DNA of 64,000 nt, taken from the NCBI GenBank assembly GCA_964512835.1, contig CAZELA010000001.1, forward strand, positions 169,372-233,371, in the 5' to 3' direction. Within the stretch, counting starts at the first letter, position 1, and each line of letters starts with the position of its first letter. Positions 14,879 to 28,921 of the stretch are shown one piece after another. The notes below the pieces were generated by a model, which made no database searches, had not been told where the DNA came from, and saw nothing but the letters and a program-made list of their open reading frames with translations. The position numbers and the translations under genes were made by a program. The stretch is from an uncultured Candidatus Saccharibacteria bacterium. Lineage in GTDB: Bacteria > Patescibacteriota > Minisyncoccia > Phycocordibacterales > UBA2100.

Positions 14879-14927
14879 ACGTCTGAATCCTACGCCCGAA
14901 AAAGCAGATTTGGAAGGGTATCAGAAA

Positions 14928-14954
14928 GGCCGGAATCCGCAGGGGATTCCGGCC
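14928..14954 (-). terminator. Array hairpin, family GGCCGGAATCC-N5-GGATTCCGGCC
   Basis: Perfect 11-bp stem with loop GCAGG. Downstream of the minus-strand gene 14978..15232. Confidence 0.7.
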
Positions 14955-14977
14955 TATTTTTTGAGCAGCGGGGCACG

Positions 14978-15232
14978 TTACTCCGCGCGGATCTCGATTG
15001 CGCGCAGTGCTTCGGAGCCGACTTCGACCGCGAGCACGCACACGCGAATGTTCTTCGGGAGCTTGCCGTCGCGCGTCGTGTTCATGATGGGGATTCGTCC
15101 CCGTGTATCCGGACTCACGACCGCCATTCGCATATTGCTATAGGCTTCGTCGAGTCGGATCACGCCGCTTCGTCCGTCACGGCTTACCGTGAGGATATAC
15201 CCGGGCAATTGCACGGATTGCTCAGTCGTCAT
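14978..15232 (-). CDS. Hypothetical protein (84 aa)
   Basis: CGGAGGCACC ribosome-binding site. Upstream is TTGATT-N16-ACGTAGGAT. Confidence 0.5.
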   Translation of the reverse strand: MTTEQSVQLPGYILTVSRDGRSGVIRLDEAYSNMRMAVVSPDTRGRIPIMNTTRDGKLPKNIRVCVLAVEVGSEALRAIEIRAE

Positions 15233-15293
15233 GGTGCCTCCGTTGGTTGGATTTCCTGCCGCATCCTACGTGTGTCCTGCCAAAAATCAAAAG

Positions 15294-15319
15294 GCCGGAA
15301 CTCCTTGCGGAATTCCGGC
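15294..15319 (-). terminator. Array hairpin (GCCGGAAcTCC..GGAATTCCGGC)
   Basis: Hairpin followed on the minus strand by TTTTGATTTTTGG. This run is both the T-tract and the -35 box. Confidence 0.65.
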
Positions 15320-15331
15320 AGAAACGGGGGG

Positions 15332-15553
15332 TTACCCGCTCATGATTTGTGAGGGGCTGAACTCGGGTTGATCGGGCGGAAGTGCGCCGTACGTGCGCGA
15401 GGGGACGGCCGGCATGGTAATGCCCCCGTTTGCGCAGATTTCGTTCGTAACGCGCACAACGTCGTCGGCGGTCCAGCCGTTACCGACTGTTTGTGCGATC
15501 GCGCTCGGCGATAGCTGCAAAATCGATACGAATTCCAACAGTGACTTCGTCAT
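15332..15553 (-). CDS. Hypothetical protein (73 aa)
   Basis: GGGAGAT ribosome-binding site. Upstream is TTGATT-N16-GCGTAGGAT. Confidence 0.5.
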   Translation of the reverse strand: MTKSLLEFVSILQLSPSAIAQTVGNGWTADDVVRVTNEICANGGITMPAVPSRTYGALPPDQPEFSPSQIMSG

Positions 15554-15614
15554 CCCATATCTCCCTCGATGAAAGCCAGTCCGAATCCTACGCGGGTATC
15601 GCCAAAAATCAAAA

Positions 15615-15641
15615 GGCCGGAATCCGCGGAGGATTCCGGCC
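15615..15641 (-). terminator. Array hairpin GGCCGGAATCC-GCGGA-GGATTCCGGCC
   Basis: Perfect 11-bp stem. Confidence 0.7.
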
Positions 15642-15672
15642 TTCGTTGTCGACTGGTGCCGACGTGTACAGA

Positions 15673-16029
15673 TCAGGCGACGAGCGAGACCTTGGGGATC
15701 TTGATGTCGCTCTTGTCGGTGGTGAACCGCCAGGGTTCGTTCCAGTTGGCGAATCCGTTCGAGATGAAGCGATAGGTCATATCGCGGTAGTCGATCTCGG
15801 GATTCGTCTCGCGACGGTAGGTCTCGAGCGCCTGGTCCAGTTCGGGATCGAACGTCAGCCAGTTGGCCGGGTCCTTGGTGAACTCGCGGAACGCGAAGTC
15901 GGCCCGGTCGTGGATCGTGTGATCGTCACACGAAACGGTGCCGACGAGCGCGCCGTCACAATAGAATCCGACGACCGACGTGGTCGCAGACTGTCGGGTG
16001 ATAGTTGCAGTGATCAGCCACTCGCGCAT
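15673..16029 (-). CDS. Hypothetical protein (118 aa)
   Basis: CGGAGGGCACC ribosome-binding site, then ATG. Canonical promoter TTGACA-16-TATTAT upstream. The longer 295-aa ORF in the track was trimmed to this Met. Confidence 0.5.
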   Translation of the reverse strand: MREWLITATITRQSATTSVVGFYCDGALVGTVSCDDHTIHDRADFAFREFTKDPANWLTFDPELDQALETYRRETNPEIDYRDMTYRFISNGFANWNEPWRFTTDKSDIKIPKVSLVA

Positions 16030-16160
16030 GGTGCCCTCCGTTGTTGCCCTGTGTGCCGCAAACATAATACAACTCAAACCAATTGTGTCAAATACATTGA
16101 AACAAAGGAAAGACCGGAATCTAGCGATTCCGGCCTCAAGCATGTGCAGGACTGTCGTAG

Positions 16161-16604
16161 CTATCGCGCGAGCTGCAGCTCCATCAGGTGATCCTGTGTC
16201 TCGCCGAATTGCGATAGGGTGCGGAAGCCAAAGTTGCGTCGGTAGTATTCCGGTATTTTTGCCGTGAGCAGCAGCACGTCCATATCGGGATTGGTTCGGG
16301 CGTGCGCGATGATTTTCTCGAGCAGCATCTTGCCGATGCCGCGCCGCTGGAATGCGGGATCGACGTTGACCCAGAATACGTTGCCGACGGAATAATCCAT
16401 CCACGATACGATGTACCCCGCAAAGCCGAGCAATCGCCCCTTCTCGACCACTGCAAAGTACGTGGGTCGAACGACGCTCGAGCCGGTAAACATGGCCTCG
16501 AGCTCGCGGCGTGCGAGTGCGGCGTAGTGCGGGGAATAGTTCTTGGCGACGATAGCGCACGCAGCGGCGATGTCGTCCCGGCGCAGTTTACGGATATGTG
16601 CCAT
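16161..16604 (-). CDS. GNAT family N-acetyltransferase
   Basis: Acetyl-CoA binding motif QRRGIGKMLLEKII. AAGGGA ribosome-binding site. GCGTAGGAT at 16632-16640 (plus-strand complement). Confidence 0.8.
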   Translation of the reverse strand: MAHIRKLRRDDIAAACAIVAKNYSPHYAALARRELEAMFTGSSVVRPTYFAVVEKGRLLGFAGYIVSWMDYSVGNVFWVNVDPAFQRRGIGKMLLEKIIAHARTNPDMDVLLLTAKIPEYYRRNFGFRTLSQFGETQDHLMELQLAR

Positions 16605-16673
16605 GGCGGTGTCCCTTTTTGAGCCGCGGCCATCCTACGCCCGAAAAATATTTTGTGCCAGTGCAAAACAAAA

Positions 16674-16700
16674 GGGCCGGAATCCAGGGGATTCCGGCCC
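16674..16700 (-). terminator. Array hairpin GGGCCGGAATCC-agg-GGATTCCGGCCC
   Basis: 12-bp stem. Confidence 0.7.
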
Positions 16701-16721
16701 TTGTCGTTGGGTAGGAGCAGA

Positions 16722-17291
16722 TCAGATGTCGCGGCCTGCGGGTATCCAGCAGGGGCCGATGACCGGCGGCAACTGGTTGTACCACGGGTCGGGGTCGACC
16801 TGACCATCCTTGATTTCCACCTTGTACACGCGTGCTGTCGGCTTGCTCGGATCCGAGTAAAACGAAAGCTCGTTTGTGTCGAAGTCGGCCACCAGGAACG
16901 GCATCATTTGCCGATACGGTCCGCACTTGCGGAAAAACGCGAGGCCCACGTGCTCGGTCGGGTTCTCGGCTTTGCCAAAGTAGCAGCCCTGGATGTACGG
17001 ACCTTGATCGCGGGTCGGCGTACACTTGCCGTCCTTGGTATCAAATACCATGCCCGCCGGCGGCTGCCATGGGGTAACGGCTTGCGCGCGCGCCGAGGTC
17101 GAACATACGAGAAGTCCGAATCCGATCATGATCACCGCGATGCCGACGAAGAATGCGACGGCGCCGAGGTTTTGTGCGCGGCCCCAGTTGGGGAACACGC
17201 CGTCGCGGGGAACTGCGATGGGCATGAGTCCCGTGGCCATTGCTACAAACCCAATCGTAATCAGCGCGAGCTCGATCAGAACTGAGGTCAT
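16722..17291 (-). CDS. Membrane protein with a Cys-containing extracytoplasmic domain (189 aa)
   Basis: Two N-terminal transmembrane helices. AAGGAG ribosome-binding site. GCGTAGGAT promoter upstream. Confidence 0.55.
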   Translation of the reverse strand: MTSVLIELALITIGFVAMATGLMPIAVPRDGVFPNWGRAQNLGAVAFFVGIAVIMIGFGLLVCSTSARAQAVTPWQPPAGMVFDTKDGKCTPTRDQGPYIQGCYFGKAENPTEHVGLAFFRKCGPYRQMMPFLVADFDTNELSFYSDPSKPTARVYKVEIKDGQVDPDPWYNQLPPVIGPCWIPAGRDI

Positions 17292-17367
17292 TGCCTGCTC
17301 CTTTTGTCTCTATTTGCATCCTACGCTCGTTTTATAAAAATCAAAGGCGAGTAGATACATACAAAAC

Positions 17368-17395
17368 GGCCGGGTCCCCGCTAAGGGACCCGGCC
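17368..17395 (-). terminator. Array hairpin variant GGCCGGGTCCC..GGGACCCGGCC
   Basis: 11-bp stem. Confidence 0.65.
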
Positions 17396-17424
17396 ACAAG
17401 GAAAGAACTACGACGCAATACCCG

Positions 17425-17622
17425 TCATTCCAAAACGCGATGTACCAATCGCATACCGCCCCACGCAATCAGTGCAAGTGCGGCGAGAGCCGACATTACA
17501 AAAGACACACCCCAATGGATGTAGAACGTAAACGGATACCACCGGGATGTCATTACGTAGACGAGTGTCGAAAGGTAGATAACGCTCAGGGAGGGTAAAG
17601 TCTTTTGGAGAGGCACGTTCAT
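17425..17622 (-). CDS. Small membrane protein (65 aa)
   Basis: Two transmembrane segments. GAGGAG ribosome-binding site. Promoter TTGACA-18-TAAAAT and a ~75 nt leader. Confidence 0.4.
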   Translation of the reverse strand: MNVPLQKTLPSLSVIYLSTLVYVMTSRWYPFTFYIHWGVSFVMSALAALALIAWGGMRLVHRVLE

Positions 17623-17742
17623 TACAGGAATTGGCTCCTCTGTTGTTGACGGGATTGGTCTTTCAGACCAGTTGCGTATCGTACTGCATCAAATCGAAAA
17701 CATTTTTACCTATACCTGTGGACAAATGTCAAAAAAGAAAGC

Positions 17743-17771
17743 AGCCGGAATTCCGCGAGGGAATTCCGGCT
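17743..17771 (-). terminator. Array hairpin AGCCGGAATTCC..GGAATTCCGGCT
   Basis: 12-bp stem. Confidence 0.65.
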
Positions 17772-17803
17772 GATCTTATTTGCGCAGTGGTCAGTCGCAG
17801 GGC

Positions 17804-18109
17804 TTAGCCTGCGCGGCGGATACCCGCTGCCTTGCCCGTGCTCGGCGCCGGCGTCGTGCTTGCTGCACTGAACTGCTGGCGCGGCGGGGTCATGAGCGTG
17901 ATCACATTGGTCCGCACGTACTGTTCGACCGTGAGGCCGACGGATGCGGCTCTCGCCGCGAGTGCTTCCTTGTTGGCCTGTTGCCGCGCGCGTTTGCGCG
18001 ATGCGCTTTTGGCTTGACCTGCGGTCGCGTTGGAAACAACACGGGCGGTCCTACGCAAACTAGAATGTACCGACATTTGTAGTCCTTCTGAAACTGACAT
18101 GCTGTTCAT
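17804..18109 (-). CDS. Small basic protein (101 aa)
   Basis: The GCGTATAGGAT motif lies 9 nt upstream of the first ATG, so the mRNA may be leaderless or start at a later Met. Confidence 0.35.
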   Translation of the reverse strand: MNSMSVSEGLQMSVHSSLRRTARVVSNATAGQAKSASRKRARQQANKEALAARAASVGLTVEQYVRTNVITLMTPPRQQFSAASTTPAPSTGKAAGIRRAG

Positions 18110-18153
18110 GCCTCGGCTATCCTATACGCTCGTGCTTCGATTTTCAAATGTAA

Positions 18154-18183
18154 GGGCCGGAATCCGCGAGCGGATTCCGGCCC
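18154..18183 (-). terminator. Array hairpin GGGCCGGAATCCG..CGGATTCCGGCCC
   Basis: 13-bp stem. Confidence 0.7.
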
Positions 18184-18204
18184 TACTTTGCAGTCTGAGG
18201 ATTA

Positions 18205-18528
18205 TTAGGACGCGGCTTTCGATTCTGCGATGGCCTGGGTGTTGATCTCGTCGATCACATCCGAGCTCACGACGCGTGTGCACCAGAGTGCTGTCTGCGC
18301 GGCCACGAGCTTGTAGAATGCCTGGGCAAGCTTGCCGTCGTCGAGCATTGTGCCGATCTGCTCAAGCTCATACACCGCATCGCAGGCGATCTCGATCGGG
18401 TCGAACGGTGCCATGCCGGGCGCTCGCGGATTGTTCACCAGTTTCTTCGGCTGCAGTATCGCAATGCGGCTCGTATAGGCGAGTGTGGCATGGGCGGCAA
18501 AGCGGATAGCGCGTGCGTTCAGGTCCAT
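18205..18528 (-). CDS. Hypothetical protein (107 aa)
   Basis: AGGGAGA ribosome-binding site. GCGTAGGAT at 18557-18565. Confidence 0.5.
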   Translation of the reverse strand: MDLNARAIRFAAHATLAYTSRIAILQPKKLVNNPRAPGMAPFDPIEIACDAVYELEQIGTMLDDGKLAQAFYKLVAAQTALWCTRVVSSDVIDEINTQAIAESKAAS

Positions 18529-18585
18529 GGGTAGTCTCCCTATTTTTCCGGCCTGCATCCTACGCCAATCCCATACAAAATCAAA

Positions 18586-18611
18586 AGCCGGGATCGCATG
18601 GAATCCCGGCT
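18586..18611 (-). terminator. Array hairpin AGCCGGGAT..ATCCCGGCT
   Basis: 9-bp stem. Confidence 0.6.
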
Positions 18612-18630
18612 GTCGACATCGAATGTGCTG

Positions 18631-19023
18631 TTATGGGAACGGGATTGTGTCGTGACCGTCCTGCCGCTGCCAACCCGTTTGGACGATGTGTCCCACTCCG
18701 GGAAATGGTGCAGCCTCAAATCGCGCGTTCGAAAAGTTGAGGCTGATGCGGTACCGACCGTCTTCTTCTTCCAGCCCGCGATCGTAGCCGGGCATGTAGC
18801 CGTGATATTCCTTGATGATCCCGATCGTGCCGGGCTTCGGACCAAAGGTGCGGTATTTTCCGATCTCGACGCCGTCGGCGAGAATGGTCCACGCCTTTGC
18901 GTAGTCTATGTTGTAGCTACGATCGCCAACGACCGGACCGGTCACGGTAAGCACTGCTGTGCCATACCGCGCCTTCAGGAACTCGAAAAACGTTTCGGCA
19001 CCGGGGAGTGGGGAGTCTGCCAT
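18631..19023 (-). CDS. Hypothetical protein (130 aa)
   Basis: GAGGG ribosome-binding site. AT-rich promoter with an extended -10 TGTATAGA. Confidence 0.5.
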   Translation of the reverse strand: MADSPLPGAETFFEFLKARYGTAVLTVTGPVVGDRSYNIDYAKAWTILADGVEIGKYRTFGPKPGTIGIIKEYHGYMPGYDRGLEEEDGRYRISLNFSNARFEAAPFPGVGHIVQTGWQRQDGHDTIPFP

Positions 19024-19097
19024 CGTCGTACCCTCGTTTGTTTGTGCGGTCTATACAGTGCAATATTTTACACATTGAGTCAATACCTAGCAAAAGA

Positions 19098-19121
19098 GCC
19101 GGAATCCAAGGGGATTCCGGC
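19098..19121 (-). terminator. Array hairpin GCCGGAATCC-aagg-GGATTCCGGC
   Basis: 10-bp stem. Confidence 0.65.
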
Positions 19122-19179
19122 CGTTTGTGTTGATGAGACCCGTGGTAGGGAATCTGCGGCGGAGCAGTCGTTGCGCGCG

Positions 19180-19425
19180 TCAGCTCAGTGCGTCTTGATG
19201 TACTGCATAAAATTCGTACGCGTGCCTCGGGTCTTCGATCAGCTGCTTGAACTGTTCTCCGTCCTCGACAACCGTGAGCGTCGCATTGGATTCTGCCTTG
19301 CGACAGGCACAAAGCTGTTCCCGTGGTCGCAGTAGTGTGCACATGAACTCGAAGCTCTTGATCTCGCAGCAGATGCGACGCGTGCCGTCGTGTTCTTGCT
19401 GAGTGAATTTCAACTTAACCGTCAT
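19180..19425 (-). CDS. Cys-containing hypothetical protein (81 aa)
   Basis: GAGGAA ribosome-binding site. GCGTAGGAT at 19459-19467. Cys residues at ICCEIK, MCTLL and LCAC. Confidence 0.5.
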   Translation of the reverse strand: MTVKLKFTQQEHDGTRRICCEIKSFEFMCTLLRPREQLCACRKAESNATLTVVEDGEQFKQLIEDPRHAYEFYAVHQDALS

Positions 19426-19485
19426 TACTATTCCTCACTGTGCAAATGTCAGATTCGTATCCTACGCCGTTCGCCCAAAAAATAA

Positions 19486-19514
19486 AGCCGGAATTCCACA
19501 GGGGAATCCCGGCG
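19486..19514 (-). terminator. Array hairpin, imperfect (GCCGGAATTCC..GGGAATCCCGGC)
   Basis: Imperfect inverted repeat of the same family. Confidence 0.55.
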
Positions 19515-19531
19515 TTTGATGTCGAGAAAGA

Positions 19532-19801
19532 TCAGTGCTCAGGTGCCAGCCACTGCTCGGCGTCGCGACTCGTGAGGAGTCCGAGCTTCACGAGGTGGAT
19601 GCCGGCGTAGTAGAGCGATCGCATGCCGCGCCGATGACTCTGCGCCCGAGCGGCATCAATGAGTCGTCGCTCAGCAAGCACAGCGAGGCGTACTTCGTCT
19701 TCGGGCCACGGATCGCAGCGCGAAAAGAATTTGAGCCATCGCTCCGCCATCAGCACACGATAGCGGTCGTTCATACGGTAATCCGGTTTGCGGGCGGACA
19801 T
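19532..19801 (-). CDS. Hypothetical protein (89 aa), last gene of a 4-gene operon
   Basis: AAGGAG ribosome-binding site. Start is 4 nt after the stop of the upstream membrane gene. Confidence 0.5.
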   Translation of the reverse strand: MSARKPDYRMNDRYRVLMAERWLKFFSRCDPWPEDEVRLAVLAERRLIDAARAQSHRRGMRSLYYAGIHLVKLGLLTSRDAEQWLAPEH

Positions 19802-19804
19802 GTG

Positions 19805-20134
19805 CTACTCCTTGGCCCACTCGTCGGCGAGGATCTTGCGACCTTCGCGATAGATCGGCGCGACTAGCCACACGACCGCTGCCACGACTGCGAGTTCGCA
19901 GATCATCAGTAGAATCTTTGCGATCTCGAATGCGAGGCTCGTTTTGAAGCCGAACGCCATCAGTGCGCTCGCGATCGGAATGATCGGATATTCGTGCACA
20001 GACACGATGATGTCCATGAACGACGCGAATGAAATCGTGATGCCGTTGTACAGCATGTAGCCGAAAACCGAGATCGGGATAATGACCTCGATGCAGATCA
20101 CGATCGCAGCAACCATTATTTGTCGGCGCGTCAT
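19805..20134 (-). CDS. Membrane protein (109 aa, 3-4 transmembrane segments)
   Basis: Hydrophobic throughout. ATGA overlap with the upstream gene. Confidence 0.55.
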   Translation of the reverse strand: MTRRQIMVAAIVICIEVIIPISVFGYMLYNGITISFASFMDIIVSVHEYPIIPIASALMAFGFKTSLAFEIAKILLMICELAVVAAVVWLVAPIYREGRKILADEWAKE

Positions 20135-20394
20135 TGGTGATTCCTCTCCAGTGCGACCATCCGGCCGTTGTTGAGCGTTGCGGTCTTGACCTCGGGCAAC
20201 GCCGCAAACGCGGCCACCTTGGCCTCGTCCTCACCCGGCGTGACTTTGAGCACATTCACGCGGCGCACTCCGGTGAAGCCGCTTTCGAATTCGCAGCCCT
20301 GTGCCGCGACGATGTCCTGGATGGTCTGTTGGGATACATCGTTGTTGAAAACCACGATGATCCTGCCGCGCCACGCTTCGGAACCCTGTGTCAT
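20131..20394 (-). CDS. Small alpha/beta protein, possibly a peptidase-inhibitor-I9 / propeptide-like fold (87 aa)
   Basis: WRGRIIVVFNNDVS..VNVLKVTPGEDEAKVAAFAALPEVKTATLNNG. Paralog of the next gene. The I9-like assignment is tentative. Confidence 0.5.
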   Translation of the reverse strand: MTQGSEAWRGRIIVVFNNDVSQQTIQDIVAAQGCEFESGFTGVRRVNVLKVTPGEDEAKVAAFAALPEVKTATLNNGRMVALERNHQ

Positions 20395-20423
20395 CCTCGT
20401 GCTCCTGTTGTATTCGGTTGCGA

Positions 20424-20669
20424 TTAGAGTGCCACGCCATCATCGTTCAAGTGTGCGCTTTTGACCTCGGGAAGTTTTTGGAACGCGGCGACTTTTGCCT
20501 CGTCCTCGCCCGGAGTCACGGTGACCACATTCACGTGGTGCGTCCCGTCGAAATCCTGCAGCAGTTTGCAGCCCTCGGCTGCGACTAGTTCACGGATCTT
20601 TGTCGCGGGCGTACCGCGGTGAAAGATCACGATGATCGAGCCGCGCCAATCTTCCAGTTTCTTTGCCAT
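20424..20669 (-). CDS. Paralog of the 20131..20394 product (81 aa)
   Basis: WRGSIIVIFHRGTP..VNVVTVTPGEDEAKVAAFQKLPEVKSAHLNDDG. GGAGGA ribosome-binding site. GCGTAGGAT at 20696-20704. Confidence 0.5.
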   Translation of the reverse strand: MAKKLEDWRGSIIVIFHRGTPATKIRELVAAEGCKLLQDFDGTHHVNVVTVTPGEDEAKVAAFQKLPEVKSAHLNDDGVAL

Positions 20670-20723
20670 CCGTTCCTCCGTTTTTACCCGAGGGCATCCT
20701 ACGCGAGCCCGACAAAAATGAAA

Positions 20724-20751
20724 AGCCAGAATTCCACAGAGAATTCCGGCC
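20724..20751 (-). terminator. Array hairpin, degenerate (AGCCAGAATTC..GAATTCCGGCC)
   Basis: Imperfect member of the family. Confidence 0.5.
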
Positions 20752-20770
20752 TTTGTAGAGTACTGAGCGA

Positions 20771-21079
20771 TCAGGGGAGCCAACGCCGCAGCGGCGAGGA
20801 ATGTTCGCGATGCGCGGCGTAATCGCCGAGCATGTAGACCGCGAACAAAAACATCACCACCACGATCGATCCGACACTTGTAGCTTGTGCGGCTGGGATG
20901 CCGATCGTAAGCCCGACTGGCTCGAACAAGGGAACAGCAGCCCCCAGTGATACGAGCCACGTGACGAACGGTGAGTAGAATGCTTTCGGTAGCGCGAATC
21001 CGCGAATGAAGAAGCTGCAGACACCGAGTACGAACGAGAGGATCGTGAATGCCATGAAGGCAGAGATTGCGACGGACAT
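20771..21079 (-). CDS. Membrane protein (102 aa)
   Basis: Three hydrophobic helices. GAGGAG ribosome-binding site before MSVAISAF. Confidence 0.45.
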   Translation of the reverse strand: MSVAISAFMAFTILSFVLGVCSFFIRGFALPKAFYSPFVTWLVSLGAAVPLFEPVGLTIGIPAAQATSVGSIVVVMFLFAVYMLGDYAAHREHSSPLRRWLP

Positions 21080-21096
21080 ACGGTTCTCCTCGCGCA

Positions 21097-21384: not shown

Positions 21385-21474
21385 GGAATCGCTCCCTGTT
21401 TGTCCGCGCATACCTTACATGTAGGGGTACAAAAAGCAACGAGCGGCGCCCGTAGGGGAGCCGCTCGTTCGTGT

Positions 21475-22526: not shown

Positions 22527-22587
22527 TGTGTCCTCCTTGTCGTTCTCAATCTATCCTACGCGCGGTTGTTCATGTGTCAAAAGGGAA

Positions 22588-22612
22588 GCGGCCGAGTCGT
22601 AGACTCGGCCGC
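22588..22612 (-). terminator. Array hairpin variant GCGGCCGAGTC..GACTCGGCCGC
   Basis: 11-bp stem. Confidence 0.6.
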
Positions 22613-22638
22613 CGATGAAAGATCGATTCCCTCCGGTA

Positions 22639-22959
22639 TCAGACTTCTTCGATCGCGATGCCCTTGAACAGGAACCGATCGCACAACATGTCAGTCAGCC
22701 GGTGCGGAACGTACACGAAGATCGTGCACACGAGCACCGAGACGACCACGAGTCCGGGAATTCCCGAGAAGTGGAAGTACGCTTCGTTGAAGATCGGGGC
22801 GTTCAGGATCGCGAACGCGCCGATCGTGATCACGCACGACTGCGAGAGTCGGACGCCGAACACCTCCTCGCGGATGCGCGAGTCGTGGGTCATGAAGGTG
22901 GCGGCAATGCTCGTGACGAACGTCAGCAGGAGATGGAAGTCAGCGAGGGAGAAATCCAT
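22639..22959 (-). CDS. Membrane protein (106 aa)
   Basis: Three transmembrane segments. GAGAGG ribosome-binding site. Promoter TTGACA-17-TAATAT, overlapped by the inverted repeat 22996..23017. Confidence 0.5.
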   Translation of the reverse strand: MDFSLADFHLLLTFVTSIAATFMTHDSRIREEVFGVRLSQSCVITIGAFAILNAPIFNEAYFHFSGIPGLVVVSVLVCTIFVYVPHRLTDMLCDRFLFKGIAIEEV

Positions 22960-22995
22960 GTCGGCCTCTCAGGTTGGGAAGGGTTTGGTACTCGT

Positions 22996-23017
22996 GGTAT
23001 ATTACCATGAATATACC
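22996..23017. promoter_or_regulatory. Inverted repeat GGTATATT-accatg-AATATACC overlapping the -10 box
   Basis: Two 8-bp arms that are exact reverse complements. Confidence 0.4.
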
Positions 23018-23061
23018 AATATGTCAAATACGGCACTGCCGTCCGTACAGCGGTCCTGTCG

Positions 23062-23280
23062 TTACGCCTGGGTCTCTACAGTCTTTGCGGCGCCGCGCAG
23101 GCCTCGGACGATTCGCAGTTTTTTCGGCGGGATGCCGAGCTCGCGGGCAATGAGTGCAATCACCGAAGCATTTGCCATGCCGCCGGCGGCTTTTGCGCGA
23201 ACCGATACTGCAAACGTGTTTCCGGTGCGTTCGATGCGATCGTTGCGGGCTCCCGCTTTTACCTGCACGCGGTATTCCAT
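23062..23280 (-). CDS. DUF167 (YggU/UPF0235) family protein
   Basis: GNTFAVSVRAKAAGGMANASVIALIARELGIPPKKLRIVRGLRGAAK matches the YggU signature. Confidence 0.6.
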   Translation of the reverse strand: MEYRVQVKAGARNDRIERTGNTFAVSVRAKAAGGMANASVIALIARELGIPPKKLRIVRGLRGAAKTVETQA

Positions 23281-23282
23281 AG

Positions 23283-23795
23283 CTACGCTTTCGGGACACG
23301 CAGTAGCGCGTGCAGGCCGTCGGGCTTTTCGCCGCGGAGAAACTGCATGACTTTTGTGATGTTGCGCTTACGCGAAAGATCGGATTTCAGGTGATTGATA
23401 TATCGATTAATCTCTTTTTGGTGAGACGGTGAGAGTTTAAAAAAAGCAGCGGTTGCCTTGGCGCTTTTTTGCAGTGAGGCGGCGAACTCTCGGTGGGGGC
23501 GCTCGGTGCGTTTACTCGGATCGAACTCGATCGTGATTGATGCTGCGCTGCCGACTTTGTAGCCTGAATTTTTCAGCATCGGACCGTTGATGTAGAGCCT
23601 CCAGTAATTCAGGTATTTCACCAATGTCTGTTTGTACTGTGCGCCGTTTATCGTGCCGCGAACGGGGATTGGGCCTTTGTTGCGTTTGGCCTGCTTGAAC
23701 ACATATCGGAGTACGTCGTCCGGTGGGACGACGCAGGGATTGATACCCACTTTGAATATGATGCTACTAAACGCTTTCACCCCGCTATCGTACAC
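23283..23795 (-). CDS. DUF1905 plus OmdA-domain protein (YdeI-like)
   Basis: VRGTINGAQYKQTLV..SITIEFDP..ASLQKSAKATAAFFKLSPSHQKEINRYI. The start is uncertain, probably a GTG near 23780-23795. Adjacent to and coupled with the DUF167 gene. Confidence 0.55.
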   Translation of the reverse strand: MYDSGVKAFSSIIFKVGINPCVVPPDDVLRYVFKQAKRNKGPIPVRGTINGAQYKQTLVKYLNYWRLYINGPMLKNSGYKVGSAASITIEFDPSKRTERPHREFAASLQKSAKATAAFFKLSPSHQKEINRYINHLKSDLSRKRNITKVMQFLRGEKPDGLHALLRVPKA

Positions 23796-23812
23796 CCTTT
23801 TTAAAAGAAATC

Positions 23813-23836
23813 GCCGGGATCCATGCGGATCCCGGC
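23813..23836 (-). terminator. Array hairpin GCCGGGATCC-atgc-GGATCCCGGC
   Basis: 10-bp stem. Confidence 0.6.
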
Positions 23837-23860
23837 CGATAGTACGAATGTGCGGTTTTG

Positions 23861-24076
23861 TTACGCCCAGGGCGTGAGCCAGAACGCACGGTTGGTGTGC
23901 AGTCCGGCGTAGAAGCCGAGCATGGCGAGCATGCGATAGGCACGCTCGAGATCGATCCCGGGGATGCATTCCACGAATGCGCCGCCGATCATGGTGAATA
24001 GCAGCATGCACATGATCGCGCCTTTGAGCGTGATCGCACGGTCACTGTCGGTATCGCGGATCCTGAGTCCGTTCAT
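23861..24076 (-). CDS. Small membrane protein (71 aa)
   Basis: GGAGGA ribosome-binding site. Confidence 0.4.
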   Translation of the reverse strand: MNGLRIRDTDSDRAITLKGAIMCMLLFTMIGGAFVECIPGIDLERAYRMLAMLGFYAGLHTNRAFWLTPWA

Positions 24077-24132
24077 CGTGTGGTCCTCCGTTTTCCTGCG
24101 TGCAGACTACTCAAACGCGCCACAAAAGCAAA

Positions 24133-24155
24133 GCGGCCGGAGAAGCTCCGGCCGC
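24133..24155 (-). terminator. Array hairpin GCGGCCGGAG..CTCCGGCCGC
   Basis: 10-bp stem. Confidence 0.6.
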
Positions 24156-24179
24156 AGTGTTCACGAGAACAGGGAATGA

Positions 24180-24461
24180 TCAGGCCGCGAGCTTCTTCTC
24201 GGCCGTGAGCGCACGCAGCGCATCGTTCTCGACCCACGTGCCGTCGGCGCGCAACAGATCGAACTGCGCCGCGGTCACGTTGATCTCGAGGGTGATGTGC
24301 GGCACCGCGTGGTCTTCGTGGTGGTCGATGTCGACGATCGTGCAGAGGCCCACCGTGAGACCCCAGTTGTGGCCGACGGCCGGAAGGACGGGCCACTGGG
24401 TCACGCGATACAGGTAGCTGTGCTTGCCTTTGACGCTGACGGACAGCAGAAAATCGATCAT
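24180..24461 (-). CDS. Hypothetical His-rich protein (93 aa)
   Basis: GGAG ribosome-binding site. TTGACA about 60 nt upstream. Confidence 0.4.
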   Translation of the reverse strand: MIDFLLSVSVKGKHSYLYRVTQWPVLPAVGHNWGLTVGLCTIVDIDHHEDHAVPHITLEINVTAAQFDLLRADGTWVENDALRALTAEKKLAA

Positions 24462-24697
24462 GCTTTCGCTCCATTTCCAGAGGGTCGGGTGACCCTCAAA
24501 ACCGCGTATACAATGCATATAAAAACACCGTGTGTCAAGTGCCGAACGGAAGGGTGTCGCGCCCACGCGGTCTCGGACTCAGATTCACTCAATAGACCAC
24601 ATTCTGGGCGCAAATACGGGCTTTGAGAGGCTGCACACGGTAGGTCCTCCTGCGATCCGTTACAGCCCTCGAGGCGGTGGGCGGCTATAAAAGCAAG

Positions 24698-24724
24698 CGG
24701 CCGGGATTGCGAGTATCCCGGCCG
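24698..24724 (-). terminator. Array hairpin CGGCCGGGAT..ATCCCGGCCG
   Basis: 10-bp stem. Confidence 0.6.
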
Positions 24725-24735
24725 TTACATTGGTG

Positions 24736-25104
24736 CTAATCGGCGGTCCATGTCGCCCACGCGATAGCCGCAGGAGCACCATCGATTGTGAGCGAGCGGA
24801 TCTCCCAACCTTTTCTGGTATCGCGGTTGTTCGGGTTGGTGGGTTCGTATCGCGCAGCCTCGGTATATCGAACGAGTTCGCGCGCGGTATGCTCCGCTGT
24901 CATCGAAAGCGCAATCGATGCGCCGCTCGGCTCCGGCCTGACAGAGAACAGTCGTCCCGAACGCGGCGCGCCGCGAATCGGCACGTAGTACTCGAATCGG
25001 GGATTGTCACCGAGCGCATGTCGCAGCGCCTCCGCAATGTGTGAAGTTTGCGAACTTGCACCCACAGGTGTCGGGGTATTCGGCAACGCCGAGAGGTCGA
25101 TCAT
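24736..25104 (-). CDS. Hypothetical protein (122 aa), second gene of a 2-gene operon
   Basis: AAGGGAG ribosome-binding site. Start overlaps the stop of the upstream gene. Confidence 0.5.
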   Translation of the reverse strand: MIDLSALPNTPTPVGASSQTSHIAEALRHALGDNPRFEYYVPIRGAPRSGRLFSVRPEPSGASIALSMTAEHTARELVRYTEAARYEPTNPNNRDTRKGWEIRSLTIDGAPAAIAWATWTAD

Positions 25105-25427
25105 TCCGTTGCTCCCTTGGTCCGGTTCTTCGAGTGTTCGAGAGCGGTGAAGAATCCGTCACCGATGCGTTTGAGTTCCTGCCACTGCTCCTTGGTAAAC
25201 ACGAGGCCGCACACGTGCACGCCGGTCCCGGACGAAATATCGAAGGGGACGATGAACAGGTGTTGGACGTCGCCGTTGCTCGCAAGACTGCCGTCGAAGA
25301 CGATCTTTTTTCCGGTCAGGTCGAATTTCGGTTCGAGCGGCGGCGTGCTCATAAATTGGGCAAGCGCATCCTCTAGTTCGCGGGCCGCACGTGCGTCAGC
25401 GAGATTGGTCACAGTATCCTTGGTCAT
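25101..25427 (-). CDS. Hypothetical protein (108 aa)
   Basis: AAGGAGAA ribosome-binding site. Variant -10 GTGTAGGGT. Confidence 0.5.
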   Translation of the reverse strand: MTKDTVTNLADARAARELEDALAQFMSTPPLEPKFDLTGKKIVFDGSLASNGDVQHLFIVPFDISSGTGVHVCGLVFTKEQWQELKRIGDGFFTALEHSKNRTKGATE

Positions 25428-25502
25428 GGCTTCTCCTTGTTCTGCGTGCACCCTACACCGCAGCAAAAAACTGCGCCAGTGATGCCCGTTTCATCGAACA
25501 TA

Positions 25503-25512
25503 CCGTTAACGG
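25503..25512. promoter_or_regulatory. Perfect palindrome CCGTTAACGG in a divergent intergenic region
   Basis: 10-bp perfect palindrome between the 25427 (minus) and 25549 (plus) start codons. Confidence 0.35.
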
Positions 25513-25548
25513 GTGTATCGTTCACCGAGTCAACGGCAGGGAGATTCA

Positions 25549-25914
25549 ATGAGCACCGTCGCAGAAACGATCGCCGGAGCACTGCTTTCGCTTAACGGTG
25601 TTGCAATGTATGTGCCGCCACGTCAGTCACGCAAAGGGCGCAAAAACATTGCCGGATTCCGCACCGAGTGTGCGCGGTATTTCACGGTGCCGCATACGGA
25701 AGTGTTGTTCGTCACGCGCGCCTATGAACATTTTCTCGTGAGAGATATGACCGAGGCGGAGTCGGTATGGCGAACGCGCGAACTCTGGTACGTGCTGACC
25801 GTTCGGTCTGACGTGCTGAGGGTCTGCGAACAGCAGATACCTATCCGGCGCGCCGCCGAATTGAACCGATGTTCTTTTAGTTCCGACAAGGAACCTATCC
25901 GACCCGATGCGTAA
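25549..25914 (+). CDS. Hypothetical protein (121 aa), plus strand, divergent
   Basis: AGGGAGA ribosome-binding site. Confidence 0.4.
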   Translation: MSTVAETIAGALLSLNGVAMYVPPRQSRKGRKNIAGFRTECARYFTVPHTEVLFVTRAYEHFLVRDMTEAESVWRTRELWYVLTVRSDVLRVCEQQIPIRRAAELNRCSFSSDKEPIRPDA

Positions 25915-25927
25915 GCGTCGGGTCGTT

Positions 25928-26335
25928 CTACATGATGCGCGTGTCGGCCGGTGTTTTCATCCAATTATTGTGGCGACCGTCGGCATATGAGAGCGGACCC
26001 GAAACGAGCTCGTCAATCGTCGCATCATCGAGTGAATTGAGGAATATGCCCACAAACGGTCCTCCCATCCATTCGGCATCCCCGTGTTCGTGCGTATAGA
26101 CGCCGCACGTTTTGCAGAAATAACGGATCGCGGTCGGGTTCTTACCGCTGTAGCCGGTGGCATGATCGTCGCCGGAGAGGAGTTTGAATGCGGCGGGTTG
26201 TATAAACACTTTCCACGAACGGATCTTGGTGCAGTACGTGCAGTTGCACCGTCCGGTGCCTTTGGAAAGATCGATATCTGCCTGATAGGTAATGGCGCCG
26301 CAGTGACAGCTGCCGTGATAAGTTTTGGTTGCCAT
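25928..26335 (-). CDS. GFA (glutathione-dependent formaldehyde-activating / CENP-V) family protein
   Basis: HGSCHCGAITY..GRCNCTYC..CKTCGV zinc-binding Cys motifs. The start lies right after a hairpin, with TATGAT 8 nt upstream, suggesting a leaderless mRNA. Confidence 0.7.
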   Translation of the reverse strand: MATKTYHGSCHCGAITYQADIDLSKGTGRCNCTYCTKIRSWKVFIQPAAFKLLSGDDHATGYSGKNPTAIRYFCKTCGVYTHEHGDAEWMGGPFVGIFLNSLDDATIDELVSGPLSYADGRHNNWMKTPADTRIM

Positions 26336-26393
26336 AGACACATCATAACAAAACGACCCGGGCTGGTGCCGGGTCGTTGTCGTGACTGAAAGA

Positions 26394-26684
26394 TCATGCC
26401 GATGCATTCTTTTCGGCCTGCTCGCGGAGCCGTTTCCGAAAGATGCCGCGGAACATCCAGATGACGAACAGGGAGATCAGCGGGAGTGCGATGATTTTCT
26501 CGGGCTGGTTGTCGAACAAGAGCCATTGCAGGTACGCGCATACGAACACGTGTGCCGGGACGATGACGAACGGAACCTTTGAGTCGATATTGCGTGAGAA
26601 GATGGCCATCGACCAACTTACAACCGCAACAAAGGTCAGTCCGAATGCGATCATGAACACAATGTCTGCGTTTCCGTCATTCAT
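26394..26684 (-). CDS. Membrane protein (96 aa)
   Basis: GGAGG ribosome-binding site. Three transmembrane segments. Confidence 0.5.
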   Translation of the reverse strand: MNDGNADIVFMIAFGLTFVAVVSWSMAIFSRNIDSKVPFVIVPAHVFVCAYLQWLLFDNQPEKIIALPLISLFVIWMFRGIFRKRLREQAEKNASA

Positions 26685-26695
26685 TTTCGCCTCCG

Positions 26696-27015
26696 TCAGT
26701 GATCGCCGATGAGTCGGCGCAGAAGCCACATGCTTCCGAGCCATCCGATGAAGCCAACTGCGATCAAGGCCGATATTTTGACGATGATCGGGTCTGTCGA
26801 AACAAGTTCAATAATGTGATCCACGGTGCCCGCCCGAATGTTGAAAGGAGTCCGACCATACTGCCAACGAGCGTACCCGTCGCCAGCATGAATCCTCCTT
26901 GGTTGGTTCCCACGCCGATGCTTACATGCAGGATCGCCGCAATGAGAGCGCCTGCGATCATGCCGGATGCGATGCGATACGCTGCGGCAAAAACACTGAG
27001 CCGACGCTCTTCCAT
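26696..27015 (-). pseudogene. Membrane protein gene with an apparent -1/+1 frameshift near a GGGCGGG run (~26820-26835)
   Basis: Frame A reads MEERRLSVFAAAYRIASGMIAGALIAAILHVS..STFGRA. Frame C continues protein-like (GTVDHIIELVSTDPIIVKISALIAVGFIGWLGSMWLLRRLIGDH) to a stop at 26696. AAGGAG ribosome-binding site and TTGCAA-16-TAGTCT promoter upstream. Confidence 0.4.
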
Positions 27016-27160
27016 GTGCGTTTCTCCTTTCGGTAGACTACGTATGTACGAACGAATTGCAACCCATTGCGTGAGTATGACGTCGTGCTATAGAGAATAC
27101 ATGAGACACAACATTCTTGTGGTCGTCCTTCGAAGCCCGCTTGGCGAGCTGTGTTTTGGA

Positions 27161-27186
27161 TGATTCACGAGAATTCTCCGGAACAG
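27161..27186 (+). promoter_or_regulatory. Hairpin AGAGCCCGC-caca-AGCGGGCTCT plus T-tract in the 5' region of the 27230 gene
   Basis: Terminator-like structure on the plus strand ~45 nt upstream of a plus-strand start. No plus-strand gene lies upstream of it. Confidence 0.35.
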
Positions 27187-27229
27187 AGCCCGCCACAAGC
27201 GGGCTCTGTTCTTTTAACAGGAGGCGACA

Positions 27230-27502
27230 ATGGAAGAGGTATATCTGCCGCGTGTGCGGGGAGGCCAGTGGGCGGTGAGTCGTATGGTGGACGGTGCGTG
27301 GTTGGCACTCATCGAAGACCGCCCGCTCTATCACAAAGACGATGCCGTAAAAGCACTCGCCGCATGCAAGATCCCGGCAACGGACAAGAATCTGGAGCGG
27401 TATTTTCCATCGCGTCCGTTTTGCGGACGGTGTCCGACACTCGAATTTCTGGAGCTGTTCTCGAAAGTCGGGAGCGGTCAGAAAAGGGAGGTCGGCGTCT
27501 AA
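27230..27502 (+). CDS. Hypothetical protein (90 aa)
   Basis: CAGGAGG ribosome-binding site. Followed by the bidirectional terminator 27509..27536. Confidence 0.45.
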   Translation: MEEVYLPRVRGGQWAVSRMVDGAWLALIEDRPLYHKDDAVKALAACKIPATDKNLERYFPSRPFCGRCPTLEFLELFSKVGSGQKREVGV

Positions 27503-27508
27503 CAAAAA

Positions 27509-27536
27509 GTGCCGGATCCCCTGTGGGATCCGGCAC
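27509..27536. terminator. Bidirectional terminator GTGCCGGATCCC-ctgt-GGGATCCGGCAC
   Basis: A-tract on one side and T-tract on the other. Sits between convergent genes. Confidence 0.7.
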
Positions 27537-27554
27537 TCTGCGTATCGAATGAGC

Positions 27555-28295
27555 TTACGCAGCGACGGGCTCTTCCGGGACCGCGAGTTCGTTGCCGTAC
27601 TCGTCGAACCCGCGCTTCAGGATCGCGATCTGCGCACGCATGTTGATCATGCTGAAGGCGCGGTGCGTGAACTGGCTCACGAGCTTGTGCACCGGCCGGT
27701 GAACGAATTGTTCGCACTGGTCGAGCATGTGCATGATCTCGCGCGCGCGACGGATTGTTTCCTTGGTCGGAACCGGTCCGAGATACGCGGAGAGATCGTT
27801 GTTGATCCGCCCGAGCACCCAATTCGAGGCCCACTGCGATTCCGGTATACCCTCGTCGGACTTGCAAACATAGTCGCGCACGAGACCGCCGATGTACCAC
27901 GGGGCCATTTTTACGAACTCGGCATGATCCGACGAGGCGTGATCATCACACCAGAGAGCGGTACGGATGTACGCCAGAATGAGCGCGGGGTAGACCTTCC
28001 ACATTGCAAAGTGCGGCGACCCGTGTTGATTCTTGGCGATCTCCTGGAAGATCGCGTCGGGCTCGTTGATGTGACCGGTGAGCAGCGCTTCGAAGATCGA
28101 TGCGAGGTATTGCTCCTCTTTTAGAATCGAATACGTCTCGAAGCTGACGACGAGCCGCGCGCGGTCGTGCGCGTGCGCCATGCTGCCCATGATCGCGGCA
28201 ACGACGAGGTCGTGCTGCAAATCGGCATTCGGTCCTTCAAGATAGGGGTGTGCGTTGAGCAGCCGATTTACGCGCGCCGTGTGTTGAACGTCCAT
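27555..28295 (-). CDS. Hypothetical protein (246 aa)
   Basis: AAGGAGA ribosome-binding site. The ~120-nt leader carries three CCCTTTCAG direct repeats. Confidence 0.55.
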   Translation of the reverse strand: MDVQHTARVNRLLNAHPYLEGPNADLQHDLVVAAIMGSMAHAHDRARLVVSFETYSILKEEQYLASIFEALLTGHINEPDAIFQEIAKNQHGSPHFAMWKVYPALILAYIRTALWCDDHASSDHAEFVKMAPWYIGGLVRDYVCKSDEGIPESQWASNWVLGRINNDLSAYLGPVPTKETIRRAREIMHMLDQCEQFVHRPVHKLVSQFTHRAFSMINMRAQIAILKRGFDEYGNELAVPEEPVAA

Positions 28296-28414
28296 TGGAA
28301 TCTCCTTTCAGAGACGGTGTGAGCCCCTTTCAGGGCGTTTCAAGGAGCAGAGGCCCTTTCAGGCATGCCGCCAGTACTGTGCAATATTCGTATAAAAAAG
28401 CAAGTCATATAAAA

Positions 28415-28438
28415 AGGCGAGGGCCGCAAGGCCCTCGC
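28415..28438 (-). terminator. Hairpin GGCGAGGGCC-gcaa-GGCCCTCGCC
   Basis: Followed on the minus strand by a T-rich, AT-rich promoter region. Confidence 0.65.
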
Positions 28439-28456
28439 CGTTATTCGTCACAACTA

Positions 28457-28645
28457 TCAGTGCATTTGCTTCTGAGCGGCGACCTCTTCGTGGCCGCACG
28501 ATTCGCAGCGGATACAGTTGTCGTATCGCACTACTGAGCATTTACCGCACGCATCGCAGGGATCATCCAGGTACGCGTCACTCATCGCGGCGATCATCTG
28601 TGATACGGCACCCGTCGCATGGAGGCGTCGGTGCGCTTTCTTCAT
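28457..28645 (-). CDS. Zinc-ribbon protein (62 aa)
   Basis: CDACGKC...CIRCESCGHE, a 4-Cys zinc ribbon. GGAGGG ribosome-binding site. ATGA overlap with the upstream membrane gene. Confidence 0.5.
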   Translation of the reverse strand: MKKAHRRLHATGAVSQMIAAMSDAYLDDPCDACGKCSVVRYDNCIRCESCGHEEVAAQKQMH

Positions 28646-28845
28646 GGCTTCGTGGCCCTCCGGTAGTAGATGGTGGTTGCAATTCCGACCGTCATCATAA
28701 TCCCGCTCGTGAGCACACCGCATCCCAGTGATGCGAGTACGCCGACGGTAGTCGATGTGTCGATCATGGTCATGAACTTTGCCGTTGTGGCGCCCGCAAG
28801 CGCAAGCGCGACCACGGCGGTCTCGGCGGTATCGGTGATCCTCAT
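28642..28845 (-). CDS. Small membrane protein (67 aa)
   Basis: GAGAGGA ribosome-binding site. TTGCAT-17-GCGTAGGAT (28870-28878). Confidence 0.5.
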   Translation of the reverse strand: MRITDTAETAVVALALAGATTAKFMTMIDTSTTVGVLASLGCGVLTSGIMMTVGIATTIYYRRATKP

Positions 28846-28921
28846 GGCAGGTCCTCTCGTCCCGCGAAAATCCTACGCCCGAGGCGCCGGGAATGCAATC
28901 ACTCGGGGTGCGTATAGCAAA

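Follow-up and report, generated by a model that had tools for sequence, protein, structure and literature searches.

Why should the same nine bases stand, letter for letter, ahead of one small gene after another in a stretch of bacterial DNA whose intergenic sequences are otherwise unrelated? The question is raised by a 64,000-nucleotide segment (the window) of contig CAZELA010000001.1 from an uncultured Candidatus Saccharibacteria bacterium (assembly GCA_964512835.1, positions 169,372 to 233,371). Here the 9-mer GCGTAGGAT on the minus strand, which reads ATCCTACGC on the plus strand, recurs within a variable island (13276-30090, minus strand) of about 34 small genes, mostly ORFans, inserted between rpoD and an addA-like gene. 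An initial annotation had described the 9-mer as a non-canonical promoter element fused to the terminator of the preceding gene. Our analysis indicates that the repeated units are probably modules of an intrinsic terminator and a σ70-family promoter, by which the island genes would be insulated from one another and transcribed, for the most part, as single genes.

The repetition claimed for this element is real. Ten exact copies of GCGTAGGAT are present where 0.39 are expected and shuffled sequences yield at most 3, and it is the commonest 9-mer of the 64-kb window; the plus-strand starts of these copies are 14887, 15585, 16632, 17318, 18557, 19459, 20696, 21905, 22553 and 28870. An eleventh copy, at 15263-15271, reads ACGTAGGAT and carries a single mismatch, at −15 if the 9-mer is numbered as a putative −10 region with GCG at −15 to −13 and TAGGAT at −12 to −7. 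The positions first assigned to these copies proved right apart from two: the copy given as 22554-22562 lies at 22553-22561, and the one beginning at 15263 ends at 15271. All copies are intergenic, on the minus strand and within 14.8-28.9 kb, and the remaining 47 kb of the window, beyond the island, has none. Sequences with one mismatch to GCGTAGGAT are not enriched (10 observed against ~13.7 expected), and the set thus consists of exact copies rather than of a fuzzy family. When the 11 copies are aligned on the motif, only −15 to −7 is invariant; C-18 is found in 9 of them, −35 to −26 is T-rich and the rest is near random. The mean pairwise identity is 0.98 in the core, 0.48 in the zone of the −35 and T-tract, and 0.33 in both the spacer and the downstream sequence.

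The surroundings of the 9-mer are those of a σ70-family promoter, in keeping with the initial proposal. TAGGAT, with the T-12, A-11 and T-7 of such promoters, is present in all 11 copies, each of which lies upstream of a gene on the same strand and at leader distance. The −10 hexamer is 24-33 nt from the ATG in ten copies, each with a Shine-Dalgarno site, and in the copy at 14887 the ATG follows 8 nt past the −10, as in a leaderless-type start. Hexamers related to TTGACA are found 16-18 bp upstream, where the best −35 match averages 3.64/6; the 789 other TAnnnT sites used as controls average 2.41/6 (p = 1.5e-4). The match in single copies varies between 2/6 and 6/6, and copy 22558 has a perfect TTGACA at 16 bp. 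Moreover, a G stands 8 nt past the −10 in 8 of the 11 copies in the window and, with the island promoters of three species taken together, in 19 of 25; this position played no role in the selection of sites. The distance from the −10 to the ATG is tight, whereas the gap between hairpin and motif varies from 19 to 46 nt, which indicates that the motif is positioned by the start of the downstream gene and not by the hairpin.

The upstream part of the 9-mer is not the TGn of an extended −10 promoter: T-15 and G-14 are absent, with G-15 and C-14 in their place in 10 of the 11 copies. Nor do the 11 aligned copies hold, at ~16-17 bp, the conserved AAC −35 of extracytoplasmic function (ECF) σ factors; CGT is present and the zone is T-rich. 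A σ54 promoter was likewise rejected, TGGCAC being present at 16637 but with no TTGC at N5.

Upstream of each of the 11 copies is a hairpin with a T-rich tail, which begins 5-32 nt past the stop codon of the preceding gene. The module hairpins have folding energies of −19 to −28 kcal/mol (z −3.8 to −6.3), with 4-9 T residues in the 10 nt past the stem, and they have what defines an intrinsic terminator, namely a stable GC-rich hairpin and a U-tract past a stop codon. Across the island the intergenic stems are GC-rich, perfect and 9-15 bp long, with loops of 3-8 nt, and 18 of the ~25 share a GCCGG…CCGGC stem, typically GGCCGGAATCC/GGATTCCGGCC. Where the stems differ, pairing is preserved, A-U being exchanged for G-C by way of G·U. 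This hairpin family is also present in the two nearest relatives of the organism (L006 and L007, see below) and absent from the remainder of the window. More than 120 unrelated metagenome contigs each contain the exact palindrome once, with differing flanks and none with the motif, which makes the palindrome a generic stable terminator stem rather than a diagnostic one. The variation of the loop between 3 and 8 nt, with no fixed spacing of half-sites, makes a dimeric regulator on the duplex palindrome unlikely and argues for a role as an RNA hairpin. We also considered a known RNA family and rejected it, the only Rfam matches being three tRNAs. The distances from the hairpin center to the predicted +1 cluster near −49 (six copies), −54, −61/−62 and −70, at about one helical turn from each other; the statistics of this clustering are weak, as the six fused copies are not independent.

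The terminator and promoter are joined less uniformly than the initial annotation had it. The −35 hexamer was said to be formed by the U-tract of the hairpin: TTGATT, within CTTTTGATTT, is indeed the direct continuation of the T-tract in three copies (15268, 15590 and 18562), and the −35 overlaps the T-tract approximately in four more (19464, 20701, 21910 and 22558). In the other four (14892, 16637, 17323 and 28875) the hairpin ends 34-46 nt before the −10 and there is no such fusion. Likewise, the unit is not of a fixed ~65 bp, the length from hairpin start to −10 end being 55-80 nt. Intrinsic terminators in general resemble these in their GC-rich stems, T-rich tails and placement just past stop codons; the island differs in that GCCGGRAWYC is shared by 18 of the ~25 stems and that the U-tract runs into the next −35 in about 7 modules.

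These features can be assembled into a mechanism in which GCGTAGGAT would act as the −10 region and would directly follow the intrinsic terminator that ends the gene before it. Transcription from upstream would be halted by the GC-rich hairpin with its U-tract, and the T-rich sequence past the hairpin would, in about two thirds of the units, double as a −35-like hexamer (TTGAYT). The holoenzyme would start at the G about 8 nt past the −10 and yield a leader of 15-25 nt with a Shine-Dalgarno site, or a leaderless mRNA in the case of the PDC-M43 operon. Such units, lined up along fast-evolving accessory DNA, would be insulated from each other and would for the most part hold a single gene. The σ is most likely the housekeeping RpoD, reading T-12, A-11, T-7 and the −35, and G-15, C-14, G-13, G-10 and G-9 would most likely mark the ~11 units as a co-regulated set, read by a putative second factor such as a repressor or activator overlapping the −10.

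The case for RpoD rests first on the protein, whose regions 2.4/3.0 carry the canonical determinants for the −10 and the extended −10, including the H/E residues for TG (VHMVE), and which can be expected on that account to read TAnnnT and TGn. Besides the motif, the island holds canonical promoters of the TTGACA/TATAAT type and of the TGn type, which are also found at tRNA and aminoacyl-tRNA synthetase (aaRS) genes. The −35 types TTGACA, TTGATT and TGGCA also occur at housekeeping promoters of the window, and some island promoters use a TGGCA/CTGGCA −35 like those of the tRNA and aaRS genes. TAGGAT retains T-12, A-11, A-8 and T-7, and in high-GC Gram-positive bacteria it is well known as a −10 read by group 1 σ factors. 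On these grounds RpoD would be a sufficient candidate for initiation, and the label "non-canonical" was overstated.

Among the closest known systems are the group 1 σ70 promoters with a G-rich −10 (TAGRRT/TANNNT) of Streptomyces HrdB and mycobacterial SigA, with TAGGAT as the −10 of the ermE promoter. The island element resembles them in T-12, A-11, A-8 and T-7, in the 16-17 bp spacer to TTGAYN, in the purine start expected 7-8 nt downstream and in lying 24-33 nt before the start codon. It differs in that nine bases are fixed in 10 copies, including −15 to −13, −10 and −9, which group 1 σ factors read weakly (or as TG at −15/−14), and in being confined to one island rather than serving as the general −10 of the lineage. 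With extended −10 promoters it shares an upstream extension of the −10 alongside a weak −35; the extension here is GCG and not TGn, whereas true TGn is found in the window at tRNA-Val, the aaRS gene, 22959 and 58487. As RpoD keeps the TG-reading residues and true TGn promoters exist, GCG should be a different signal.

Several observations weigh against a promoter read by RpoD and nothing else, or against the co-regulation proposed above. The −35 is weak (2-3/6) in several copies. The canonical contacts of RpoD need neither G-10/G-9 nor GCG, the extended −10 here being TGn, and RpoD alone leaves their invariance unexplained. The motif is also confined to the island. TAGGAT is one hexamer among many, and not enriched, in 1273 upstream regions of 80 related Paceibacteria loci, and we rejected it as the general −10 of the lineage. 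Neither a regulator nor a second σ factor was found in the 64-kb window. Single-sequence AlphaFold models of two ORFans were uninformative: that of a 101-aa protein showed two plain helices, with no support for DNA binding, and that of a 246-aa protein had a predicted local distance difference test score (pLDDT) of 38. Taken together with the alignment, the retention of G-15, C-14, G-13, G-10 and G-9 beyond the known contacts of RpoD points to selection by something more.

The motif can also be followed in the nearest relatives. By RpoD, these are two Candidatus Paceibacterota/Kaiserbacteria metagenome-assembled genomes, L006 and L007, at 94% and 91% identity, against 60-90% for ~80 other Patescibacteria, and we assign the present genome to Ca. 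Kaiserbacteria too; identical copies of the locus are found only in metagenome assemblies. The island strand of L006 has TAGGAT at five intergenic sites, preceded by GGG, GAG, GCG or TGG, and the promoter orthologous to copy 18557 is GGG-TAGGAT with a conserved 5′ untranslated region. The L007 sites are GCG-TAGGAT (twice), GCG-TAGCAT, ACG-TAGCAT and GGG-TAGTAT. Of 24 close relatives, these two alone show an enrichment of GTAGGAT downstream of rpoD on the island strand, in contrast to the 22 more distant ones. The initial annotation had made its reading depend on the motif recurring in related islands, and so it does: the relaxed form nnG-TAG-N-A-T is found before non-orthologous genes in the islands of both species. 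On this comparison the durable core is G-13, T-A-G, N, A, T, and it is in the full form GCG…GG that the motif has become fixed in the present genome. In addition, CTAGCGAAT stands at −36 to −28 in several L007 promoters and is present in L006 (6755) too; related forms in the window are CTTCCAAAT (14892), CTGGCACAA (16637) and CTGGCGCAG (25455). The L007 island (12700-14500) further holds composite repeats ~540 bp apart, built from three hairpin types.

The strongest version of co-regulation is that GCGTAGGAT defines an island-specific regulon, whose ~11 units, including the candidate anti-phage system PDC-M43, would be switched jointly by a dedicated reader of the whole 9-mer; we regard this as conceivable but doubtful. 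Such a reader could be a minimal σ-like protein, a repressor overlapping the −10, or a methyltransferase acting on A-11 within CGTAG. This sequence conforms to CGYAG, the target of a type III methyltransferase of Neisseria, and an enzyme of that specificity would place N6-methyladenine on A-11. No σ or helix-turn-helix protein was recognized among the island proteins with Pfam, NCBIfam or PADLOC, and sequence searches of the PDB with island ORFans gave no matches. A lenient Pfam scan of 10 candidate ORFans returned only a NikA-like hint (E = 0.05) in the 101-aa protein. This basic ORFan (17804-18109, minus strand) thus bears a weak likeness to a ribbon-helix-helix protein, and its own promoter is the GTA-TAGGAT variant.

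An alternative that we consider unlikely is that a dedicated σ or σ-like factor, encoded elsewhere or as an unrecognized ORFan, reads the 9-mer with little need of a −35, the island being a separate transcription program. Nine contiguous invariant bases amid otherwise random flanks, the lack of any excess of near-matches, the restriction of the motif to the island, the finding that TAGGAT is not a common −10 in related genomes and the coexistence of two promoter classes in one island would all fit such a factor. The CGTA of the motif, moreover, is similar to the −10 recognized by certain ECF σ factors, B. subtilis σW among them. However, the 64 kb hold no second σ gene, T-12, A-11, T-7, the 16-17 bp spacing and the TTGACA-like −35 are the requirements of RpoD, and the AAC −35 of the ECF type is absent. 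The sister species, furthermore, relax GCG to GGG/GAG/TGG and GG to GC/GT, which fits a tolerant reader. Phage promoter sets offer a parallel: T4 gp55 reads TATAAATA, a long −10-type element with little need of a −35, and T4 late or phage early-region promoters likewise place one short invariant −10-type element before many co-oriented small genes. They differ from the present case, in which the island is without phage genes, no gp55-like factor was found in the window and −35-like elements are present.

The copies might instead owe their uniformity to duplication of the terminator-promoter unit and gene conversion, with no functional reader beyond RpoD. Four modules do align over ~60 nt at 62-72% identity, the GCCGG…CCGGC stem is shared by most of the terminators, tandem gene duplicates exist in the island, and the 540-bp composite repeats of L007 are made of such units. 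Conversion tracts, however, would homogenize neighboring sequence, yet identity falls from 0.98 to 0.33 as soon as the 9-mer is left on either side; the copies vary in the length of the spacer and in the distance from hairpin to motif, and the TAG-N-A-T core with G-13 is kept before unrelated genes in other species. This makes the process an improbable explanation on its own. Among the causes first proposed, simple co-amplification is thus disfavored, and for the other two, a dedicated σ factor and a bound regulator, the window holds no candidate gene.

Least credible, to the point of being very improbable, is that the hairpin and GTAGGAT form a recombination or mobility site, attC- or REP/RAYT-like (repetitive extragenic palindrome and its associated transposase), that bounds cassettes and has only incidental promoter activity: small co-oriented genes in an array with conserved hairpins between them, a gene order shuffled relative to L006, the variable hotspot, and a GTAGGAT that agrees with the attC core GTTRRRY at 6/7 positions and includes GTAG, the REP tetranucleotide, are outweighed by a motif that follows the start codon and not the hairpin, by a generic stem, and by the absence of an integrase or Y1 transposase among the 34 island open reading frames or the flank genes scanned. 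For integron attC sites in particular, which we rejected, IntI is missing from the same set of genes, A replaces the invariant T within the GTT triplet, no inverse core (RYYYAAC) lies beyond the hairpin and the stems are perfect. Integron arrays do share with the island the co-oriented small ORFan genes, the hairpin-forming repeats between them and the variable hotspot; the island differs in having neither intI nor the R″/R′ core pair, in its short, perfect, T-tracted hairpins and in a promoter for each gene. REP/RAYT elements were rejected as well: GTAG lies on the 3′ side of the hairpin at a variable 19-46 nt and not directly 5′ of the palindrome, and no Y1 transposase was seen in the genes scanned. 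As for dispersal, the 64 kb analyzed have these repeats in the island only.

The favored combination of terminator and σ70-family promoter can be followed module by module along the minus strand. Module 1 (14887-14955) has a hairpin at 14955-14927 (−23.3 kcal/mol) and GCG-TAGGAT at 14895-14887, ahead of the ATG at 14878 of the PDC-M43 A/B operon. In module 2 (15263-15319) the hairpin at 15319-15294 is followed by the T-tract/−35 TTGATT, a 16-bp spacer and ACG-TAGGAT at 15271-15263, upstream of gene 15232-14978 (84 aa). Module 3 (15585-15644), with a hairpin at 15644-15612 (−25.9 kcal/mol), has a T-tract-fused TTGATT, a 16-bp spacer and GCG-TAGGAT at 15593-15585 before gene 15553-15332 (73 aa). 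In module 4 (16632-16702) a hairpin at 16702-16672 (−28.3 kcal/mol) is combined with CTGGCA at 18 bp from GCG-TAGGAT (16640-16632), preceding the GNAT gene 16604-16161, and in module 5 (17318-17397) the hairpin at 17397-17366 is followed by a second T-run with TTGATT and by GCG-TAGGAT at 17326-17318, preceding gene 17291-16722 (189 aa). Module 6 (18557-18611) has its hairpin at 18611-18586, TTGATT, a 16-bp spacer and GCG-TAGGAT at 18565-18557, and precedes gene 18528-18205 (107 aa), whose product is also encoded, unchanged, on a public contig of 565 kb. Modules 7 (19459-19513) and 8 (20696-20754) each have a hairpin (19513-19487 and 20754-20721), a T-tract and GCG-TAGGAT (19467-19459 and 20704-20696); the former precedes gene 19425-19180 (81 aa) and the latter gene 20669-20424. 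Downstream of 20669-20424 are genes 20394-20131, 20134-19805 and 19801-19532 without intervening terminators, and 20669-19532 is likely a four-gene operon. Within it, adjacent tandem paralogs of 81 and 87 aa (20131-20669) share 71-77% DNA identity over segments of 71 and 49 nt, and each has a weak Fervidolysin_NPro-like match. Module 9 (21905-21961) has a hairpin at 21961-21934, TTGCTT, a 16-bp spacer and GCG-TAGGAT at 21913-21905, upstream of gene 21876-21475 (133 aa); module 10 (22553-22613) has a hairpin at 22613-22587 and TTGACA with a 16-bp spacer to GCG-TAGGAT at 22561-22553, upstream of gene 22526-21966 (186 aa, with a HEIGH motif). Module 11 (28870-28943) lies apart, with a hairpin at 28943-28922, TTGCAT, a 17-bp spacer and GCG-TAGGAT at 28878-28870, before genes 28845-28642 and 28645-28457.

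Variants of these modules are also present on the same strand. The three initially listed all exist: GTG-TAGGGT (hexamer 25455-25450, element 25450-25458), 22 nt before the ATG at 25427; GGT-TAGGAT (hexamer 29685-29680, with GGT 29688-29680), in a module at 29680-29743 with a hairpin at 29743-29712 and gene 29624-29400; and ATG-TAAGGT (hexamer 21417-21412). To these we add GTA-TAGGAT (hexamer 18124-18119, with GTA 18127-18119), in a module at 18119-18184 with a hairpin at 18184-18153, TTGAAA, a 17-bp spacer and gene 18109-17804; GAG-TAGTCT (hexamer 24109-24104, with GAG 24112-24104), in a module at 24104-24155 with a hairpin at 24155-24133, TTGCTT, a 16-bp spacer and gene 24076-23861; and ACG-TAGTCT (hexamer 27040-27035).

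The canonical promoters with which the motif had been contrasted, those before 16029, 17622 and 22959 and the TATAGT-6-ATG at 58487, are likewise real. The first of them (16064-16137) joins a hairpin of the same family (16137-16110) to TTGACA-16-TATTAT (16091-16064), upstream of gene 16029-15673. A GCCGG-family terminator at 17742-17772 has a T-tract that runs into TTGACA-17-TAAAAT, the promoter of gene 17622, and another at 19097-19122 is followed by TTGCTA-17-TAAAAT and gene 19023-18631. A canonical extended −10 promoter at 22999-23027, TTGACA-17-(TG)TAATAT, precedes gene 22959-22639, and its L006 ortholog reads TTGACG-N-TGGTATAAT. Outside the island, and also on the minus strand, tRNA-Val (43904-43935) has the extended −10 TGC-TACACT with the −35 TGGCAA, and a class I aaRS gene (37798-37830) has TGC-TACCAT with GGGCAA. 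At tRNA-Ser (58693-58720), GCGTAAGCT ends 7 nt before the mature 5′ end and matches the island motif at 7 of 9 positions.

The PDC-M43 operon (13276-14878, minus strand) is the last of the island and matches the PADLOC candidate anti-phage system of that name. Its 199-aa product, with a transmembrane segment and a receiver-like domain, matches PDC-M43A (E = 3.7e-31), and its 344-aa HATPase-like product matches PDC-M43B (E = 4.7e-46). The position of its ATG, 8 nt past TAGGAT, suggests a leaderless mRNA. Two further genes on the minus strand look leaderless with a like geometry, TACCAT-6-ATG at 37798 and TATAGT-6-ATG at 58487; with the ATG 6-8 nt after the −10 in all three (37798, 58487 and 14878), leaderless mRNAs seem to be used in this organism.

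The window itself is bacterial chromosome, with rpoB (104-3343), rpoC (3367-7083), dnaG (9947-11764), rpoD (11925-13238, encoding a group 1 σ of 437 aa) and an addA-like helicase-nuclease gene (30069-33239), all identified by Pfam matches and on the plus strand. The gene order dnaG-rpoD-addA is conserved, the three being directly adjacent in many Paceibacteria, whereas 16.8 kb separates rpoD from addA here. Across loci L006-L085 the rpoD-addA junction differs in size between species, from 0 bp up to more than 10 kb, and it exceeds 10 kb in the nearer relatives too, which makes it a hotspot for accessory DNA. Pfam-type family matches of the island proteins are limited to LapA_dom, GNAT, YdeI/DUF1905 and HATPase_c. 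In L006, of whose island 10 kb was compared, we found orthologs of 7 island genes, at 32-66% identity and in partly shuffled order; given the 94% identity of RpoD, this marks the island as fast-evolving accessory DNA at a conserved hotspot. A phage origin was rejected: megablast gave no match among 50,697 phage records, PHROGs yielded only a GNAT match and nothing phage-like among the island proteins, and the hairpin has 3 matches in IMG/VR.

The cumulative GC skew climbs over nearly the whole window (1-64000), which suggests the plus strand as the leading one; in that case the ~34 island genes would be lagging-strand genes, head-on to replication, and the flanking housekeeping genes co-directional with it. 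One further locus, the metagenome contig L209, is identical to the window from rpoC on and then, at a small hairpin (window 8623; from 5477 in L209), turns AT-rich with He_PIG and PMT genes; this divergence is probably an assembly chimera, possibly a strain variant. Strain-level cassette breakpoints from L209 and L215 were not used, as their divergent parts resemble assembly chimeras.

Our literature search found nothing on GCGTAGGAT as a promoter or on Kaiserbacteria islands, and to our knowledge almost nothing is known of the transcription signals of Candidate Phyla Radiation (CPR) bacteria. In a cross-species promoter survey, the sole CPR organism with mapped start sites is Nanosynbacter lyticus, a Saccharibacterium (PMC12641261). 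The 11 near-identical natural promoter-terminator units, lying beside canonical promoters, offer a test set for recognition by a Kaiserbacteria RNA polymerase. There is nothing unusual in the parts of these units; the notable feature is that CPR intergenic regions with no other similarity contain exactly the same −10 region of nine bases. If RpoD alone explains the motif, this would be an ordinary, tidy case of compact gene punctuation. The invariance of nine bases in unrelated flanks nevertheless suggests joint control of fast-evolving ORFans and a candidate defense system, and a regulon with a dedicated reader, if true, would offer an initial insight into the coordination of hypervariable accessory genes in ultra-small symbionts.

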